A program made the translations under genes and the position numbers. The notes below the pieces were generated by a model. It saw only the letters and a list, made by a program, of their open reading frames with translations. It made no database searches and was not told the origin of the DNA. A stretch of DNA of 62,227 nt from Candidatus Poseidoniaceae archaeon (GTDB lineage Archaea; Thermoplasmatota; Poseidoniia; Poseidoniales; Poseidoniaceae): NCBI GenBank assembly GCA_964228815.1, contig CAXRAL010000046.1, positions 1 to 62,227 of the forward strand, given 5' to 3'. Every line of letters starts with the position of its first letter. Within the stretch, counting starts at the first letter, position 1. Of the stretch, positions 1,675 to 13,334 are shown piece after piece.

Positions 1675-2745
1675 TCACGAGACGGCGGGCTTCGCTTCAC
1701 GAAGCGCCAACTGTTTCTTCAGTTCACGGAAGCTGATCATGCGACCGTTGACCTCGTCCCAAAGTCGAAGTTGGATGGATTTGAGACTGTTGAAGAATCG
1801 GAGTTCTGGGGCATCCTGGAAGAAAGGATGTGAGTGGTGGCAGTGCTCGAGGTTGTAGTTGGGAATTCGGGGGTTCAGGTGGTGAATGTGGTGGTAGCCG
1901 ATGTTCCCAGAAAACCACTGAAGAATCTTGGGGAGGTTGTAGTAACTGCTTCCGGCCATGGCAGCGGTCGTGTAGTCCCAATCCTCGCTGGTGGCCCAAT
2001 ACGTGTCCTCAAACTGGTGTTGGACGTAAAAGAGCCAGAGACCAAAGAGTGAAGCGATGGACATCATGGTCAACTGAATGACAAGCCACGGAAGGAAGCC
2101 AAAAATCATGCTCATGCCGACGCACCATCCAATCAAGGCGGCGTTCATGACATACACAGACTGCCGCTCTCGACCCTTTGATTTGGAGTGAGAAAAGCGC
2201 TGCAGGATGATGAACAACACCAGAGGACCGAACACAAAGAGAATGATGGGGTTTCGAATGAATCGATAACTGAGCTGAAGTCGGCGAGAACCTGATACAT
2301 ATTCTTCGACGGTAAGGGTCCAGATGTCGCCAATCCCGCGACGGTCAAGGTCGCCGTTGGTAGCGTGATGTCGAGCGTGCTCCCAACTCCACATTCGGTA
2401 AGGCGTAAACGTCAGCAGACCGGTAATGAACCCAACAACGCTGTTCGCACGCTTGGATTTGAAGAATGAGCCGTGTCCGCAGTCGTGGAAGATGATGAAT
2501 GTACGAACGAGGAACAAGCCGCCGAGCAAAGCAAGCGGAATGCAGTACAGCAAGGAGATGTCTTTGAGGAAGTAGCAGGCCACCCAAATGACTGCAATGG
2601 GAACCAACGTGTTGATGATTTGCCAAACCGCTTTGCCCACGTGCGGCTGTTGGAAATCAGCGATCAGTTTCTTCCACTCTTTGTTGGCGGAGGCCGTACT
2701 CTTTTGAGACGGTGCTTGCGATTCATGTGTGAGGTTGATGCCCAT
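1675..2745 (-). CDS. Membrane fatty-acid desaturase (Des/delta-12-like)
   Basis: His boxes HDCGH, HARHH, HHIHH plus YVQHQF; TM segments; start taken at ATG 2745 after GGTGA (ORF open to 2784). Confidence 0.9.
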   Translation of the reverse strand: MGINLTHESQAPSQKSTASANKEWKKLIADFQQPHVGKAVWQIINTLVPIAVIWVACYFLKDISLLYCIPLALLGGLFLVRTFIIFHDCGHGSFFKSKRANSVVGFITGLLTFTPYRMWSWEHARHHATNGDLDRRGIGDIWTLTVEEYVSGSRRLQLSYRFIRNPIILFVFGPLVLFIILQRFSHSKSKGRERQSVYVMNAALIGWCVGMSMIFGFLPWLVIQLTMMSIASLFGLWLFYVQHQFEDTYWATSEDWDYTTAAMAGSSYYNLPKILQWFSGNIGYHHIHHLNPRIPNYNLEHCHHSHPFFQDAPELRFFNSLKSIQLRLWDEVNGRMISFRELKKQLALREAKPAVS

Positions 2746-2834
2746 CTTCATCACCAACGCCGAGGCGTTCTTATCATTGGCCAAGGCGTTGAGCCTAAGA
2801 AAGTGGTGTTTTAATCCACACCAAATGTCCGAAT

Positions 2835-3554
2835 TTAAACGAATTCGGTGAGGAAGTCACGCACCCGTGACATCACGCTATCAAGCGAAAGTTCTGATTT
2901 CTTGGAAGGAAGGTGAACGCGGCATTGTTCCAGGTACCCGCGTTGGGGCACCCACGAACTTGATGTTGACCACCACAATTCCGTCATCCCGTCCCCACGG
3001 GCAAGCATGATGTCAGCTCCTGTTACTGCATCAGCATCCACAGACAACACCGTTCCACCGAACCATTCAGTTGTCTCAGGTGATGGAAATTCTGATGGGG
3101 GAGACGGAGATAGATGATGTGATCGACCTCCTGGTGCGCCGGTTTGGCCGGGCATGAGAACAACCCGATCGGCAACCATGTGAGTGGGTGTCGTTCGCTC
3201 GGATGACGTCAGTTCGAGAATGTATGTTTCGTCGTGCTCCGTGCACGATTGAATTCGAGTGCGAGTGAAGAACGACACATGTTGACGAGCGGCAACGGCA
3301 GCGAAATGTTTCATCACCCAGTCCCATCGACAACCCCAACCGTCTTCGTTTTCTTTCAGTTCAAGAAATGAAATTTGGTCAGTGGTGAGGTAATGTTGGA
3401 GTTCTGAAGGATTGATGATTCGGCCTGGATGCTGAACGGGGAGGCCTATTTCAGCTTCGAGTTCAATGATTGTGACGTCGTGTTGAGAAGTCAATTCGAT
3501 GGATAGAAGCAAGGCTTCAATCGAGCCACCTATCAATACAACACGCACAATCAT
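2835..3554 (-). CDS. Degenerate FAD-binding protein, geranylgeranyl-reductase-like N-terminus
   Basis: VVLIGGSIEAL...VTIIELEAEIGLPVQHPG resembles the Rossmann + EIGxPV motif of GGR-family flavoproteins, but GxGxxG is degenerate and the protein is only 239 aa. Confidence 0.5.
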   Translation of the reverse strand: MIVRVVLIGGSIEALLLSIELTSQHDVTIIELEAEIGLPVQHPGRIINPSELQHYLTTDQISFLELKENEDGWGCRWDWVMKHFAAVAARQHVSFFTRTRIQSCTEHDETYILELTSSERTTPTHMVADRVVLMPGQTGAPGGRSHHLSPSPPSEFPSPETTEWFGGTVLSVDADAVTGADIMLARGDGMTELWWSTSSSWVPQRGYLEQCRVHLPSKKSELSLDSVMSRVRDFLTEFV

Positions 3555-3754
3555 CCCTCAATCGGTGAAATGTCCAATGCAAAAACAGGACACGATGGAA
3601 GACAGAGACGACAGTGGGTACAATTTGGCTCATCAACGTAAATCATACGGTTGGTCAAGGTGAGCACTTGCACTGGACATAAGGCAATGCATGCTCCACA
3701 ACCAAAACAACGATCTTCGTCGATGACGAATTCGTGCGATGGAATTCGTCCCAT
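3551..3754 (-). CDS. 2x[4Fe-4S] ferredoxin
   Basis: CFGCGACIALCP and CTHCRLCLPSCP; likely start ATG 3754; 4-nt overlap with the downstream gene. Confidence 0.9.
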   Translation of the reverse strand: MGRIPSHEFVIDEDRCFGCGACIALCPVQVLTLTNRMIYVDEPNCTHCRLCLPSCPVFALDISPIEG

Positions 3755-3792
3755 GACCGGTGGAAGGATTCGTGGTTCATGGCCTCTTCGTT

Positions 3793-4034
3793 CTCCTTTG
3801 GAAACAAAATAGGAAATTTTTTGGAGAAGAGAAGCAGACAATGATGGACCCCCTCATTTCCACTGGAATATAATCGTCGTATCACCAGCGTGATCGAAAA
3901 ATCGGGAATGGTAATGTGAATCGAAAAAAACCCGTGGAGTATGCTCGCGAGTAGTTAATCAATATTGGGAATTTAATGCATGAAGATTTCAGATCAACTA
4001 CACGGAGAATGACCTCCAGTGGAAATCAAGGGGT
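3793..4034. other. Candidate archaeal replication origin (ORB elements plus AT-rich spacer)
   Basis: TTCCAGTGGAAATGAGGGGGT (- strand, 3848-3868) and CTCCAGTGGAAATCAAGGGGT (+ strand, 4014-4034) match at 18/21 and fit the archaeal ORB pattern with G-string; weaker copy at 3793-3813; AT-rich DNA between. Confidence 0.75.
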
Positions 4035-4075
4035 GAGACCCACATCTTCATGCAGAAGCAATGTTTGGTTCGTGC

Positions 4076-5389
4076 ATGGTCCTCTATTCACCTGGGCGAA
4101 CTTCAACCTACCCAATTGAACCTCCAGTCTCAGGTCTTCGTTTCCACTATCTAGGTGGTGGAGATGAAGTTGGCAACGTTGGTATTGTCCTTGAGGATGC
4201 ACAAGGCACTCGCTTACTTCTCGACTACGGTATAGCACCTACATCACCCCCTCGCTACCCAAAAGAAGCGCCTGTAGTTCACGATGCTGTGATCACGCAT
4301 TCGCACATTGACCATCTCGGTATGGCGCCCTGGTTATGCGCTCATCACCGAACTCGACTTCACGGCACCATCATCACGTCAGAACTGTCTGATATGATGT
4401 GGCGTGACTGTTACAAAGTGAGCTCCATTGAACGTTACCCGTTGGCTTGGGATAAGCGCGACATTGACACGGCGCTGGACTCATGGTACGTTCATGATTT
4501 TGGTGTACCATGGACCCATCACAACTGGGAACTTACCTTGCACCCAGCTGGCCACATTCCTGGTGCTGCCATGCTTCACATCACCACCCCAGAAACCAGC
4601 GTTTTGCTGACCGGCGATTTTGACACTCGAGATTCTTCGTTGGTCAGCGGTGCTCAACCCGTTCAAGCGGATATTTTGTTCGTCGAAGGAACATATGGGG
4701 GTCGAGATCATCCACCAAAACAGGAGGAAATTAACCGATTCATCTCGTCCGTTGAAGCGGTTGTGAAACGAGGCGGAACCGTTCTCATTCCAGCGTTTGC
4801 CAATGGAAGAACCCAGGATGTGGTCATGATGCTCCATGAGCATTTACCACGGCTCAACGTTCACGTAGATGGGATGGGGAAGCGCGTCGCAAAAACCCAC
4901 CTCAATCACCCTCAGCTTCTCAGGGATGCATCAGCGCTCGAACGTGCTTGGCGATGGGCAAAACAAGTCTCGAGTAAATCTGATCGAAAGAAAGCACTTG
5001 CTGCTGATGTCATCGTAACAACGTCTGGTATGCTGGAAGGTGGGCCGGCTCTTTGGTACCTGAATCGTCTTCGACACGATCAGAAAAATGCCATCTTCTT
5101 CACGGGCTATCAAGCACGTGATACCGGTGGACGAAACCTCTTGGAAACCGGTACCATCAGCATTTACGGACAGCAAGCCCATGTTTCTCTTGACATGGAA
5201 CAGTTTTCCTTCTCAACGCATGCAGGTCATCAAGAAATTCTTGACTTCGCGAAAGCCTGCCAAGCAAAGCATGTCGTCGTGTACCATACCGACCCCACCC
5301 ACGCTCGACCACCTTTGGTTGAAGCGCTTGTTGAACAAGGTCACACCGTTCACGAACCAAAAAACGGTGAGTCGTACGTGATCGATTAA
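4076..5389 (+). CDS. Metallo-beta-lactamase/beta-CASP ribonuclease (aCPSF2-like, no KH domains)
   Basis: LGGGDEVG, HSHIDH, AGHIPG, TGDF, EGTYG, FSTHAGH motifs; start 4076 or 4061. Confidence 0.88.
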   Translation: MVLYSPGRTSTYPIEPPVSGLRFHYLGGGDEVGNVGIVLEDAQGTRLLLDYGIAPTSPPRYPKEAPVVHDAVITHSHIDHLGMAPWLCAHHRTRLHGTIITSELSDMMWRDCYKVSSIERYPLAWDKRDIDTALDSWYVHDFGVPWTHHNWELTLHPAGHIPGAAMLHITTPETSVLLTGDFDTRDSSLVSGAQPVQADILFVEGTYGGRDHPPKQEEINRFISSVEAVVKRGGTVLIPAFANGRTQDVVMMLHEHLPRLNVHVDGMGKRVAKTHLNHPQLLRDASALERAWRWAKQVSSKSDRKKALAADVIVTTSGMLEGGPALWYLNRLRHDQKNAIFFTGYQARDTGGRNLLETGTISIYGQQAHVSLDMEQFSFSTHAGHQEILDFAKACQAKHVVVYHTDPTHARPPLVEALVEQGHTVHEPKNGESYVID

Positions 5390-5477
5390 CACGCGAATCT
5401 ACGGTTTCATTCCATGAACAATGCCCGGCGAAGCGAAGTCATTGAATACATCAACACCTAGCGAAGCCTTGAGTCCC

Positions 5478-5768
5478 ATGGCTGCAAAGACCCCCGGTAA
5501 GAAAAAAGGCAAGCGCAAGCGAAAGATGCGACTGTCCTTGAAGCAGTCAAAAATGAACACCGCCTCGGACAAGTACTCCGATTCGCTCGGATGGTCGACC
5601 GATGTTGGACGAACCTTGGGTGATGCACCCAAACCAACCGGCCCACAAACCATCAAGGTGCAATGCGAAATGTGCGGTTCAATGTTGAAGATTCCAAAAC
5701 CAAAACGATCTCGTTATTCCGTGTCGTGCACGTATCCTGAATGTGGCCACGTCATGCAGTTTGATTGA
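5478..5768 (+). CDS. Small basic zinc-ribbon protein
   Basis: Lys-rich N-terminus; CEMC...CTYPEC; likely start ATG 5478. Confidence 0.7.
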   Translation: MAAKTPGKKKGKRKRKMRLSLKQSKMNTASDKYSDSLGWSTDVGRTLGDAPKPTGPQTIKVQCEMCGSMLKIPKPKRSRYSVSCTYPECGHVMQFD

Positions 5769-5769
5769 G

Positions 5770-6576
5770 ATGCGCCTGGCCTTGGTCGTCTTGACGACCC
5801 TTCTCGTACCGCTTGCTGGGTGCGTTGATTCGCCAGCAGAGGCAGACTCTTTTCGTCTTGGTACCACCACCTCCATGCGCGATTCAGGGTTGCTCGATGT
5901 TCTGATTGAGGACTTTGAACGTCTTCATGACATCGACGTGGAATACGTGGCGGTGGGTACAGGCGCCGCCCTTGAGTTGGGTCGAAACGGTGATGTGGAT
6001 GCGCTGATCGTCCACGCACCGGATCAAGAAGCGGAATTCATCGAAGAGGGGTTCGCCGATGAACGGGTCCCCATCGCTCGCAATGCGTTCGTTCTTCTCG
6101 GTCCGAGCACATGGAACGCCTCAATTTTTGAAGCCTTTACGTCCATTCTCGAGGACGAGACATGCTTCATTTCTCGCGGCGACAATTCAGGAACACATGC
6201 AAAAGAGCAGGCTATCTGGCGACATATCAACCAAACTCAAGGCGTTGAGATGGTTGAGGACTCAAACGGATACCATCCTTCCGGTGACTGGTATTTCTCC
6301 ATCGGCCAAGGCATGGGAGCGGCCATCAACATGGCCGATGAGAAGAACTGTGCAACGTTTTCAGACCGTGGAACGGCCCTCCAGTTTCAATCAAACATTG
6401 ACCTCGTGCGGACAGAATTTTCCGATTCGATCGCTGACAATCCGTACGCTTACTTGGTGATTCAACCGGGGAATGCCACGGCCGGCCATACGTTTGAATC
6501 CTATCTGCTCAACGAAGGGCGACTTCTCATTGCAAACTACACCATCAACGGCGAACATCCGTTTTTTGTGGATTAG
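5770..6576 (+). CDS. tupA: Tungstate ABC transporter substrate-binding protein
   Basis: TTTSMRDSGLL, AVGTGAAL, VHAP, FISRGDNSGTHAKE motifs; lipobox-like LAGC. Confidence 0.88.
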   Translation: MRLALVVLTTLLVPLAGCVDSPAEADSFRLGTTTSMRDSGLLDVLIEDFERLHDIDVEYVAVGTGAALELGRNGDVDALIVHAPDQEAEFIEEGFADERVPIARNAFVLLGPSTWNASIFEAFTSILEDETCFISRGDNSGTHAKEQAIWRHINQTQGVEMVEDSNGYHPSGDWYFSIGQGMGAAINMADEKNCATFSDRGTALQFQSNIDLVRTEFSDSIADNPYAYLVIQPGNATAGHTFESYLLNEGRLLIANYTINGEHPFFVD

Positions 6577-10218: not shown

Positions 10219-10397
10219 GGGCGGCAAGTATGGGGTTTGTATTATGAAGGCTTGTTCTTGAGTATGGTCTCGCAGTATCACGATTTTGATACATTTAATC
10301 CTATGTTACTTTCATCCTAACACCCAACACCAACACTCGCAAGCAAAAGCACGACTTGAAGAACTGTTGACCGGTCGTTGCCTTTGGAGCGTTTGCC

Positions 10398-13334
10398 ATG
10401 ACGACAGGTCAGGACGGTTGGATTGAGGTCAAGGGGGCGCGAACCCACAACCTCAAGGACATCTCCGTCAACCTTCCAAAAGGTAAATTCGTCGTGATAT
10501 CGGGCGTTTCTGGCTCGGGAAAATCCAGTCTCGCCTTTGACACGCTGTACGCCGAGGGCCAGCGAAGGTACGTTGAGAGCCTGTCCTCGTATGCACGCCA
10601 GTTCATTGGTCAAATGAAAAAAGCAGATTGTGATTCCATCGAGGGCCTTTCCCCTGCGATTTCCATCGACCAAAAACAAGGCAGTCACAACCCCCGTTCA
10701 ACCGTGGCAACGGTCACTGAAATCCAAGACTATCTTCGTCTGCTTTGGGCCAGGATCGGGAAACCACACTGCCCATCGTGCGGGAAAGAGGTGGCTCGAC
10801 GCACCGTTCAGGAGATCGTGGATGACATCTTTTGGCGCATGGAAGCGCACGGCGTTGCCGTATGGTCGCCCGTCGTGCGCGCCAGGAAAGGAACCCACAT
10901 GGAACTCTTCCGGCAACTGGTCGAGCAGGGCTACCTCAACGGGCGCGTCAACGGGCACGAAACATCGTTCGAGGAACCGCCTACCCTCGACAAGAATTTC
11001 CGCCATGACATCGATGTCCGCATCGATCGTCTACGATGCACCCGTGATCGTAGACAACGCCTCACTGAGGCGGTTGAGTCGGCTCTCCGATTGGGCGGCG
11101 GCACCTTAGCCGTCGAGAGCCTTGAAGCTCCCAAACCCGATGCTAAACTCAGTGCCAACTCCAACGCTCATGCGACTGAACAGGGGCAAACCATCGCCTG
11201 GTCCGAGGATTTTGCGTGTCCCGACCACGGTGCGTTCATGCCCGAACTTTCTCCCCGCGTCTTTTCATTCAACTCACCCCTGGGGGCGTGCGGGACGTGC
11301 CAAGGGTTGGGCGTTCAGCGCCAATTCAACATCGAACTCGTTGTTGACGGAACACTGAGCGTCTCCAACGGCTGCGTCATCCCCTGGCGACAGTCGATGT
11401 CTCCTTCCTGGTACCGTAAATTGTTGGAATGCACGTGCGAACACTACAACATCTCCACCACACTCCCCTTTGAGATGCTGGATGAGGATGAGAAGGACAT
11501 CTTGCTGTACGGCTCGGGCTCCACCGTCATTCACTACGAATTCACCTCCGAAAACGGCTCGCAATACAAGTACAGCAAACCGTGGGAAGGCATCATCCCT
11601 CGCCTCGAGAAGACCTACGCCGAAACCACCAGCGAGCGAACGCGAAATCGGTTGATTGCGTGCATGACGGACCTGGACTGTTCCACCTGTTCAGGAGAGA
11701 AACTGAATCAGGCTGCTCGCTATGTGACGGTGGGTGGTATTCGTCTGCCCGAGGTCAGCCAGTGTTCGGTCCATGACGCGCTGGGCTTGGTTCGTGCATG
11801 GAATCCCGAAGGTGACGGTCCACCGGAAGCGTTTCAGGACCTTCTCGAAACCCTTGATGAACGAAGCATGTTCATTGGCTCTGAAATCATCAAGGAAATC
11901 GAAGGGAGGCTCGGGTTCCTCGATAGCGTTGGATTGGACTACCTCACCTTGGACCGGAAGGCGAACACCCTTTCGGGCGGTGAAAGCCAACGAATTCGTC
12001 TGGCCACGCAAATTGGAAGCCGCTTGACCGGCGTCATGTACGTGCTCGACGAACCTTCCATCGGTCTGCACCAACGCGACAACGACCGCCTCCTCACCAC
12101 GTTGAGAGAACTCAGTGATTTGGGCAACACCTTGCTTGTGGTCGAGCACGACGAAGATACCCTGCGCCAAGCGGATTGGTTGTGCGATCTCGGCCCAGGA
12201 GCTGGTCTTGAGGGCGGCGTGGTGGTGGCGAACGGCACGCCAGAAGAGGTCATGGCCAGTGAAGCATCCGTCACGGGCGCTTACCTCAGCGGACGAAAAT
12301 CCATCCCATGGCCCGAGAAGCGAGTCAAGCCTGGCAAGCACCATCTCAAGGTCAACGGAGCCCGTCACAACAACCTCCAGAACATCAACGTCGCCTTTCC
12401 AATCGGCTGCATGACGGCGGTCACTGGCGTGTCAGGCTCAGGAAAATCCTCGTTGGTATCGGGTATTTTAGCGCCCGCTCTTCAACGGGATGTTCACCGA
12501 GCGGAAACCCTGCCTGGACGACACACCTCACTCGAAGGGGTGGAGCACGTGGACAAGGTGATCACCATCGACCAATCACCCATTGGTCGAACTCCCCGGT
12601 CCAACCCTGCAACGTACACGAAGGTGTTCGATGAAATCCGTTCGCTGTTTGCCAACACAAAGCTGTCCAAGGAGCGAGGTTACAAACCCGGCCACTTTAG
12701 TTTCAATGTCAAGGGTGGTCGGTGCGAGGCTTGCAGAGGCGGGGGATCGATCAAACTGGAAATGAACTTCCTTCCCGACGTGTGGATCACTTGCGATATT
12801 TGCAACGGGAAGCGGTACACTCGAGAATGCCTTGAGGTGGAATGGCGCGGTCGAACCATCCACGACGTTCTGGAGATGCCGGTGGCGGAAGCGGTTGAAT
12901 TCTTCAAGAATCACCGGAAAATCCACCGGACGCTCGAAACCCTCGATGCGGTCGGCTTGGGCTACATCCGTCTGGGCCAACCAGCCACCACACTTTCAGG
13001 CGGTGAAGCACAACGGGTCAAACTCGCCAGTGAACTGCGACGGATGCCCAACAAGCACACGGTCTACATTCTCGACGAGCCAACCACGGGACTGTCGTTC
13101 AGTGATGTTGCAAAACTCATCAATGTCCTTCACCAACTTCGCGACAAGGGCCACACGATGATCATCATTGAACACCACCTTGACGTGGTCAAATCGTGCG
13201 ATTGGGTGGTCGACCTTGGCCCGGAAGGCGGCGAACGTGGCGGGCAGGTGATTGCGAAGGGGACGCCGGAAGCCGTAGCAAAGGTGGGCGAGAGCCCAAC
13301 TGGACAATTCCTGTCAAAGATGCTGAACCGTTGA
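10398..13334 (+). CDS. uvrA: Excinuclease ABC subunit A
   Basis: Two GVSGSGKSS Walker A motifs, two LSGGE signatures, zinc fingers, 978 aa. Confidence 0.97.

Follow-up and report, generated by a model that had tools for sequence, protein, structure and literature searches.

We analysed a 62,227-nucleotide (nt) stretch of DNA (hereafter the window), which is the whole of contig C46 in the 92-contig, 1.99-Mb assembly of a Candidatus Poseidoniaceae archaeon (GCA_964228815.1; estimated completeness 84%, genome GC 58%). Close to its left end, an intergenic region at 3758-4060 separates two diverging genes, and a preliminary description made from the sequence had singled out this region as a candidate replication origin between a ferredoxin and a beta-CASP nuclease. 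Pfam matches bore out both neighbors. The left-hand gene (3551-3757, minus strand) encodes a 68-aa ferredoxin with two 4Fe-4S motifs (Fer4_7, E = 4.3e-16). The right-hand gene (4061-5389, plus strand) encodes a beta-CASP/metallo-beta-lactamase protein, 442 aa long when counted from the ATG at 4061 (Beta-Casp, 9.5e-16, and RMMBL), that scores 215 bits against NCBIfam aCPSF1, under the 580-bit cut-off for that family. Both genes read away from the region between them. The flanks are more AT-rich than the rest of the window, as had been remarked, with a GC of 0.47-0.51 over 2001-6000 and mostly 0.55-0.62 elsewhere on the contig.

The intergenic region carries two 21-mers in inverted orientation, TTCCAGTGGAAATGAGGGGGT on the minus strand at 3848-3868 and CTCCAGTGGAAATCAAGGGGT on the plus strand at 4014-4034, which are identical at 18/21 positions, with coordinates and sequences as first described. 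Each consists of TCCAGTGGAAA, followed by four variable bases and then GGGG(G)T, and an inverted-repeat search returned the same elements as 20-nt arms (3848-3867 and 4015-4034) that are 90% complementary and have 147 nt between them. Both fit the consensus sequences printed in Table 2 of PMC4153887 for the origin recognition box (ORB) of archaea, CTTCCAGTGGAAACGAAAGGGGT, and of the Methanomassiliicoccales, GTTCCAGTGGAAATGG-AGGGGTA, in that the dyad TTCCAGTGGAA is followed by a G-string in each. We refer to them as ORB-L (3847-3868, minus strand, TTCCAGTGGAAATGAGGGGGTC) and ORB-R (4014-4035, plus strand, CTCCAGTGGAAATCAAGGGGTG). The dyad half of ORB-L points to the spacer between the boxes and its G-string points outward; ORB-R is inverted relative to ORB-L, giving the order ORB(-), spacer, ORB(+).

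An ORB matrix built on 95 unique box instances from relatives gave 35.0 bits for ORB-L, the best ORB site of the assembly, and 34.0 bits for ORB-R, the third-best, a ranking that is partly built in because the matrix was trained on these very sites. The best match in a reversed-sequence control reached 26.2 bits, and only three assembly sites exceed this value: the two boxes of the window and a box ahead of mcm (34.1 bits). Counts of the exact pattern are unaffected by the training of the matrix; the 1.99-Mb assembly has four exact copies of the 19-nt pattern, two of which are the boxes of the window. With up to two mismatches allowed, TCCAGTGGAAANNNNGGGG has two matches in the window against 0.10 expected, a number reached in 0/100 shuffles; the bare 11-mer with at most one mismatch is not significant alone (three matches in the window against 1.5 expected). 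Two further copies reported earlier are not ORBs. Only ORB-L and ORB-R exceed 14 bits within 3700-4200, and the third-best site there, the supposed weaker copy at 3793-3813 (plus strand), scores -1.7 bits and has no G-string, though it is partly conserved in the genus (consensus only 50-80%). The supposed partial copy near 4138-4150 falls within the coding sequence of the beta-CASP gene and has a score of -12.8 bits. Folding of 3840-4045 as single-stranded DNA gave z = -1.79, the structure being the inverted repeat itself. At 4035-4050, directly after ORB-R, we also noted that the G-string of the box gives way to its own complement and then to a conserved run (GGGGTGAGACCCACATCTTCAT), in which ACCCACATCTTCAT is kept genus-wide and TTCAT across families; this stretch may be part of the beta-CASP promoter or leader.

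The spacer (3869-4013) agrees with the roughly 145 bp of AT-rich DNA described at the outset. At 39.5% GC, compared with 58% for the genome, it is the lowest-GC 147-bp stretch of the 62-kb contig, with 0.03% of 147-bp windows as low and the contig minimum among such windows (38.1% GC) starting at 3854. In 61 related loci (not deduplicated), GC averages 36.7% in the spacer and 49.0% over the initial 150 bp of the beta-CASP gene, and the box cores are separated by 126-147 bp (146 bp at 28 of the loci, 145 bp at 17). On composition, the spacer would provide the AT-rich region of an archaeal origin and is a candidate site of duplex unwinding and helicase loading. In assembled contigs of four RNA-labelled public runs, fragments from relatives either end at the spacer or diverge within it.

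A central element of 41 bp (3926-3966, plus strand), conserved family-wide and with a CGCG core at 3945-3948, is situated about midway between the boxes. When 65 unique origin sequences were compared, conservation was at least 90% in the CGCG columns, as it was in the ORB cores, and 30-50% in the remaining spacer. The element has a single site in the assembly, at 52.7 bits, with no other above 12 bits and a reversed-sequence control of 12.7 bits. It is weak in one of three families of relatives (f3), where it scores 12.7 bits in genome G039, below a 16.5-bit control. The central element may be a site for an accessory factor or the promoter of the beta-CASP gene.

The preliminary description had proposed that conservation of the intergenic region be checked in Marine Group II (MGII). 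We obtained 89 loci via the beta-CASP protein, 30 from a draw of relatives, 34 from species-representative genomes and 25 from a class-wide draw, the three sets sharing some genomes, and counted a pair where a (-) box was followed by a (+) box, each above 15 bits and 120-160 bp apart. The pair is present in 84/89 loci; of the five misses, three have no upstream DNA and two (L116 and L183) have one box. Counted in distinct genomes, it was found in 30/30 of the draw of relatives and 24/25 of the class-wide draw, and it spans families f1, f2 and f3 of the Poseidoniales, down to 52-59% identity of the beta-CASP protein. The 84 pairs collapse to 65 unique sequences. All 84 pair-bearing loci have the ferredoxin motif on the expected side, and 80 have both the ferredoxin and the metallo-beta-lactamase motifs reading away from the pair, the other four failing only a simple HxHxDH pattern. 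In Marine Group III, 0/6 loci had a site above 8 bits within ~2 kb of a 38-44% identical homologue, which may not be the orthologue.

By GTDB, the Methanomassiliicoccales belong to the same phylum as the Poseidoniales. The ORB pairs listed for them in Table 2 of PMC4153887 have an almost identical box, including the 4-nt gap before GGGGT, and also occur as inverted pairs. The order ORB(-), duplex-unwinding element (DUE), ORB(+) is given as the minimal functional archaeal oriC in the available portion of the Ori-Finder-Arch preprint, a comparison that assumes its motif to be written in the same orientation as ours; this order, together with the fit of the boxes to the printed consensus (PMC4153887, Table 2), upholds the earlier reading of the locus as the ORB/DUE layout of an archaeal oriC. 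According to the accessible part of PMC12141716, ORB2 and ORB3 of Sulfolobus oriC1 each bind one Orc1-1 monomer with defined polarity, are both required, and direct MCM to the DUE between them. As in Sulfolobus oriC1, two inverted ORBs flank an AT-rich region at the locus studied here (130 bp there including the boxes, ~189 bp here) and a conserved motif lies midway between them; unlike our locus, oriC1 adjoins orc1-1 and has a third ORB (PMC12141716, same part).

Origins normally adjoin the initiator gene (reviews; PMC4010727), as the preliminary description had stated when it remarked that the window holds no cdc6/orc1. A profile search detected no Orc1/Cdc6 gene on the window contig; the assembly has two, both on other contigs (C90:15950-17044 and C7:76031-77125). 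The C90 protein matches TIGR02928 at 415.6 bits and has Cdc6_C, lid and AAA domains, and its best solved relatives, Sulfolobus solfataricus Cdc6-1 (2qby_A, 7e-94) and Aeropyrum pernix ORC1 (2v1u_A, 6.4e-91), are both ORB-bound structures. Judged by these matches, it is a canonical Orc1-1, and the genome thus encodes a cognate initiator of the Orc1-1 type. Contigs of four relatives carry orc1-1 together with the pair, 310-467 kb apart. In G039:C1 the pair is at 186.2 kb and orc1-1 at 523.5 kb (337 kb). For the other three, the position given is that of the pair or box, or of its neighbor gene: 682.7 kb with orc1-1 at 372.1-373.2 kb in G037:C1 (310 kb), 7.1 kb with orc1-1 at 455.2 kb in G080:C1 (448 kb), and 88.6 kb with orc1-1 at 555.5 kb in G088:C3 (467 kb). 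G039 and G037 have a second orc1/cdc6 paralogue another 100 kb off. The lack of an adjacent cdc6/orc1 therefore holds for the order and not only for this contig, and the initiator, being encoded far from the pair, must find its site in trans.

The available portions of two sources hold precedents for an origin without a neighboring cdc6/orc1, in Aeropyrum pernix (PMC5333045) and Hyperthermus butylicus (Ori-Finder-Arch preprint, Figure 1 legend). Both are Crenarchaeota, and A. pernix has two origins, whereas here the unlinked state is fixed across an order of Thermoplasmatota with the same flanking genes. The Methanomassiliicoccales pairs differ likewise, as they directly adjoin orc1/cdc6.1, on its upstream or downstream side, and have spacings of 39-256 bp in the part of PMC4153887 at hand.

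A skew inflection at the locus had been suggested as a further check, and curves of gene orientation and nucleotide skew do turn at the orthologous locus in two genomes, one of them from another family and one from the genus of the window. The first, G039, is a single contig of 1,598,520 bp (91% estimated completeness) that was taken as a circle, with boxes at 186,238 and 186,371. Its cumulative gene orientation has its global minimum at 185,988-186,441, which is the divergent junction holding the pair and one of 234 such junctions, and its maximum at 941,667. The raw cumulative GC skew at third codon positions (GC3) has its maximum at 186,446. After correction for orientation, in which the coding-strand mean was subtracted and the result multiplied by gene strand, the maximum of GC3 is at 192,066, and the corresponding AT skew (AT3) falls to a sharp minimum at 988,301; the antipode of the pair, at 985,560, is 2.7 kb away. 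A bipartition scan of AT3 placed the best split at 222 kb, broad over 160-260 kb. The range of the strand curve is 175.7 kb, compared with 97.7 +/- 20 kb in shuffled gene orders (P = 0.001), and that of corrected AT3 is 3656, compared with 1167 +/- 262 (0/2000 shuffles); both asymmetries are real. Genes diverge from the locus, as would be expected for an origin but not for a terminus. A bipartition on strand-corrected GC3 was set aside: a jump at about 1.05-1.08 Mb, at the position of a 9.7-kb gene, dominates it and does not fit a single-origin picture.

The second genome, G007, belongs to the genus of the window, and 400 of the 408 kb of its contig C1 were covered. Around the pair at 169,009-169,192, the raw cumulative GC skew has its maximum at 170,298 and corrected GC3 at 169,875, and corrected AT3 has the shape of an inverted V that peaks at 155,259. 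On the left of the pair, 89 genes are on the minus and 42 on the plus strand; on the right, 104 are on the plus and 89 on the minus strand. Within the window, all five cumulative curves are extreme at 3.7-4.0 kb, which is consistent with the turns in the relatives but weak because only 3.8 kb lie to the left of the locus.

The architecture of the locus and its conservation, the Orc1-1 gene elsewhere in the genome, and the turn of orientation and skew in relatives lead us to conclude that the box pair between the ferredoxin and beta-CASP genes is very likely the main chromosomal replication origin of Poseidonia and, more broadly, of the Poseidoniales (MGII), an origin of the oriC1 type with the order ORB(-)/DUE/ORB(+) that is unlinked from the initiator gene. 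By analogy with Sulfolobus oriC1, we infer Orc1 binding, helicase loading and firing at the locus: one ATP-bound Orc1-1 monomer would occupy each inverted ORB with fixed polarity, the initiator encoded at C90:15950-17044 would act from a distance, and the two bound initiators would direct the MCM helicase onto the ~145-bp AT-rich spacer, from which forks would leave in both directions. The boxes may in addition influence how the two diverging genes are transcribed, although the origin reading does not require this.

Several observations count against this conclusion or limit its precision. The usual hallmark, an adjacent initiator gene, is lacking: the locus is intergenic, but the orc1 genes lie elsewhere. 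With two scoring ORBs the locus falls short of the rule, in the available text of the Ori-Finder-Arch preprint, of at least three ORBs where no initiator is adjacent. An ORB alone does not make an origin, since single ORBs also sit in promoters, as at mcm, and the high rank of the two boxes owes something to the training of the matrix. The raw GC and GC3 skews are not independent of gene orientation, because the coding-strand GC3 skew is -0.13. In G039, whose circularity is an assumption, the strand trough is broad and nearly flat over 50-250 kb, only 687/1222 gene calls (56%) are co-oriented, the calls themselves being crude (longest open reading frames, 100 aa or more), and several junctions at 67-177 kb are equally good when judged by gene count. 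The maximum of corrected AT3 in that genome is a plateau over 80-400 kb with a small dip near 200 kb, and the locus is therefore bracketed and not pinpointed. Corrected GC3 makes a second sharp turn near 453 kb, outside a single-origin picture; when two genes longer than 9 kb were removed, the maximum stayed at 192 kb and the 453-kb turn remained. Two of the extremes in G007:C1, the minimum of the strand curve (196,890) and the maximum of raw GC3 (197,979), are displaced 28-29 kb to the right of the pair.

Some features of the neighboring genes deserve mention. The beta-CASP start kept in relatives (CATGGT...) corresponds, by alignment, to the ATG at 4076, five codons past the first in-frame ATG at 4061. 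In G007:C1 (167,657-168,978), the beta-CASP gene beside the origin reads as two pieces and has a single in-frame TGA; either the assembly contains a frameshift or stop here or the gene is truly disrupted. The 239-aa product of the next gene to the left (2835-3554) has no Pfam or NCBIfam match and nothing that points to a role in replication; its look-alikes are Thermoplasmatota hypothetical proteins, some with NAD/FAD-binding families. On the right, 6 kb from the origin, is a bacterial-type UvrA gene (10371-13334, 987 aa), followed by purine-synthesis genes (FGAM synthase parts). Rfam families had no match within 3000-5000 at E values up to 1, and a scan for sigma-70 promoters and terminators, a type of scan not applicable to archaea, stayed at chance level.

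The same genomes contain ORBs at promoters, and these bear on whether the boxes might be only operators, with an Orc1/Cdc6 paralogue acting as a transcription factor of the ferredoxin and beta-CASP genes and replication starting elsewhere. The box ahead of mcm (C8:14036; 34.1 bits) has the exact pattern and precedes the start codon of that gene by 83 nt; another 38 nt upstream is a weak second copy, GAAGCGTGGAAAACAAGGGGTG. In a genome of another family, the same place is taken by a box of 28.4 bits (G039:307,179), followed by a 733-aa frame identified by eye as MCM. These sites suggest that the initiator controls expression of the helicase, the mcm box probably being a promoter operator. At C84:1901, a one-mismatch site, TTCCAGTGGAAAAGAAGGTGAT, lies between diverging genes for dUTPase and the small subunit of ribonucleotide reductase (RNR); it scores 20.0 bits, below the 26.2-bit control, and similar sequences are found in two genomes of the same genus (G007:C4:170059 and G059:C2:382541). 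An operator function would also fit the position of ORB-R, ~40-60 nt upstream of the conserved beta-CASP start codon, a short distance maintained in relatives, and Orc1-2 is described as a regulator in Sulfolobus in the available portion of PMC9738581. We nevertheless consider it unlikely that the boxes are operators alone, since this would leave unexplained the inverted pair at a conserved ~145-bp spacing around the GC minimum of the contig, as well as the orientation and skew turns at the locus in two families. Near the beta-CASP start, ORB-R is accompanied by an inverted partner box, an AT-rich spacer and a switch of strand, whereas the mcm box, although the same box, is a single full-strength copy with no AT-rich partner region and no turn of strand or skew; the cumulative strand curve of G039 rises straight through 300-325 kb.

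The orc1-1 gene has ORB-like motifs of its own nearby, and as archaea can have several origins (PMC5333045, in the portion available), the main origin could lie there, with the pair studied here a second or dormant one. The motifs belong to a winged-helix gene cluster ~5 kb from orc1-1 (C90:9,960-10,640). A palindromic mini-ORB, TTCCACTGGAA, without a G-string, sits in an intergenic region of 43-45% GC with a TATA-like run directly after it, and ~490 bp away, ~400 nt inside an 836-aa gene with no family match, is an exact-pattern ORB of 25.4 bits (C90:10621). The other side of the mini-ORB encodes a DUF3860 protein of 112 aa. Both motifs recur in relatives, the mini-ORB being kept in G007 and degenerate in G039. 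We regard a main origin at this cluster as very unlikely. It has no inverted pair of full ORBs around an AT-rich stretch, and its one full ORB is in coding DNA and below the 26.2-bit control. On the 256-kb contig G007:C8, corrected AT3 falls monotonically through the corresponding locus and gene orientation does not switch there (72 minus and 74 plus to the left, 26 minus and 22 plus to the right), and in G039 the curves pass the locus, at 519 kb, without a bend. A weak second origin may exist at this position, as skews record a long-term average. We read both the orc1-1-proximal locus and the mcm box as initiator-controlled promoters.

It is extremely unlikely that the boxes form an inverted repeat by chance or are what is left of the ends of a mobile element: although inverted repeats around an AT-rich core can be element termini, no shuffle in 100 gave two matches, the orthologous locus has, by simple motif tests, the same two neighbors in 80/84 pair-bearing loci, no transposase is present, and the motif is that of the ORB consensus (PMC4153887, Table 2).

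Returning to the pair as the main origin, the central element raises a more tentative possibility, which we hold to be rather unlikely though worth stating. The origin might have three parts, two Orc1-1 boxes and the 41-bp central element with its CGCG core at the dyad centre. A lineage-specific origin factor would dock on this element, an arrangement resembling in function the ucm motif and its protein UBP in Sulfolobus but unrelated to them. Under this reading, the initiator would act purely in trans, and single ORBs would let it regulate mcm, the dUTPase/RNR pair and the winged-helix genes beside orc1-1 as well. As presented in the available part of PMC12141716, ucm is a dispersed site with 329 chromatin immunoprecipitation peaks, and oriC1 is bound by both Orc1-1 and UBP. 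The 11-bp ucm, taken from oligonucleotides printed there, is absent from the spacer, and its only two matches in the window with at most two mismatches are at 10,235 and 19,322. In Sulfolobus, ucm occupies several hundred genomic sites, compared with one site in the assembly for the central element, and the two sequences are unrelated, only the position midway between boxes being alike (PMC12141716, same part). If this three-part, trans-acting arrangement is true, the origin and a replication regulon would share one protein.

MGII archaea are uncultured and very abundant, and are the commonest archaea of the surface ocean. We found no published placement of their origin, although the Ori-Finder-Arch supplement (17,472 predicted oriCs, including Thermoplasmatota) or the original MGII genome paper may list one. 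PMC3914693 and PMC4153887 mention Marine Group II, with no MGII origin located in the portions available, and the MGII genomics papers searched contained no occurrence of oriC, Cdc6 or GC skew. The locus very likely gives this important uncultured order a new placement of a classical origin module, one that is unlinked from its initiator gene, which is the rarer arrangement, and that has an additional central element. Origin predictors that favor initiator-adjacent regions or demand three boxes would probably miss this site or choose the orc1-proximal locus. A located origin would allow peak-to-trough coverage estimates of in-situ growth rate, give closed genomes a natural zero point, and provide a 250-bp substrate for the biochemistry of Orc1-1 and MCM.

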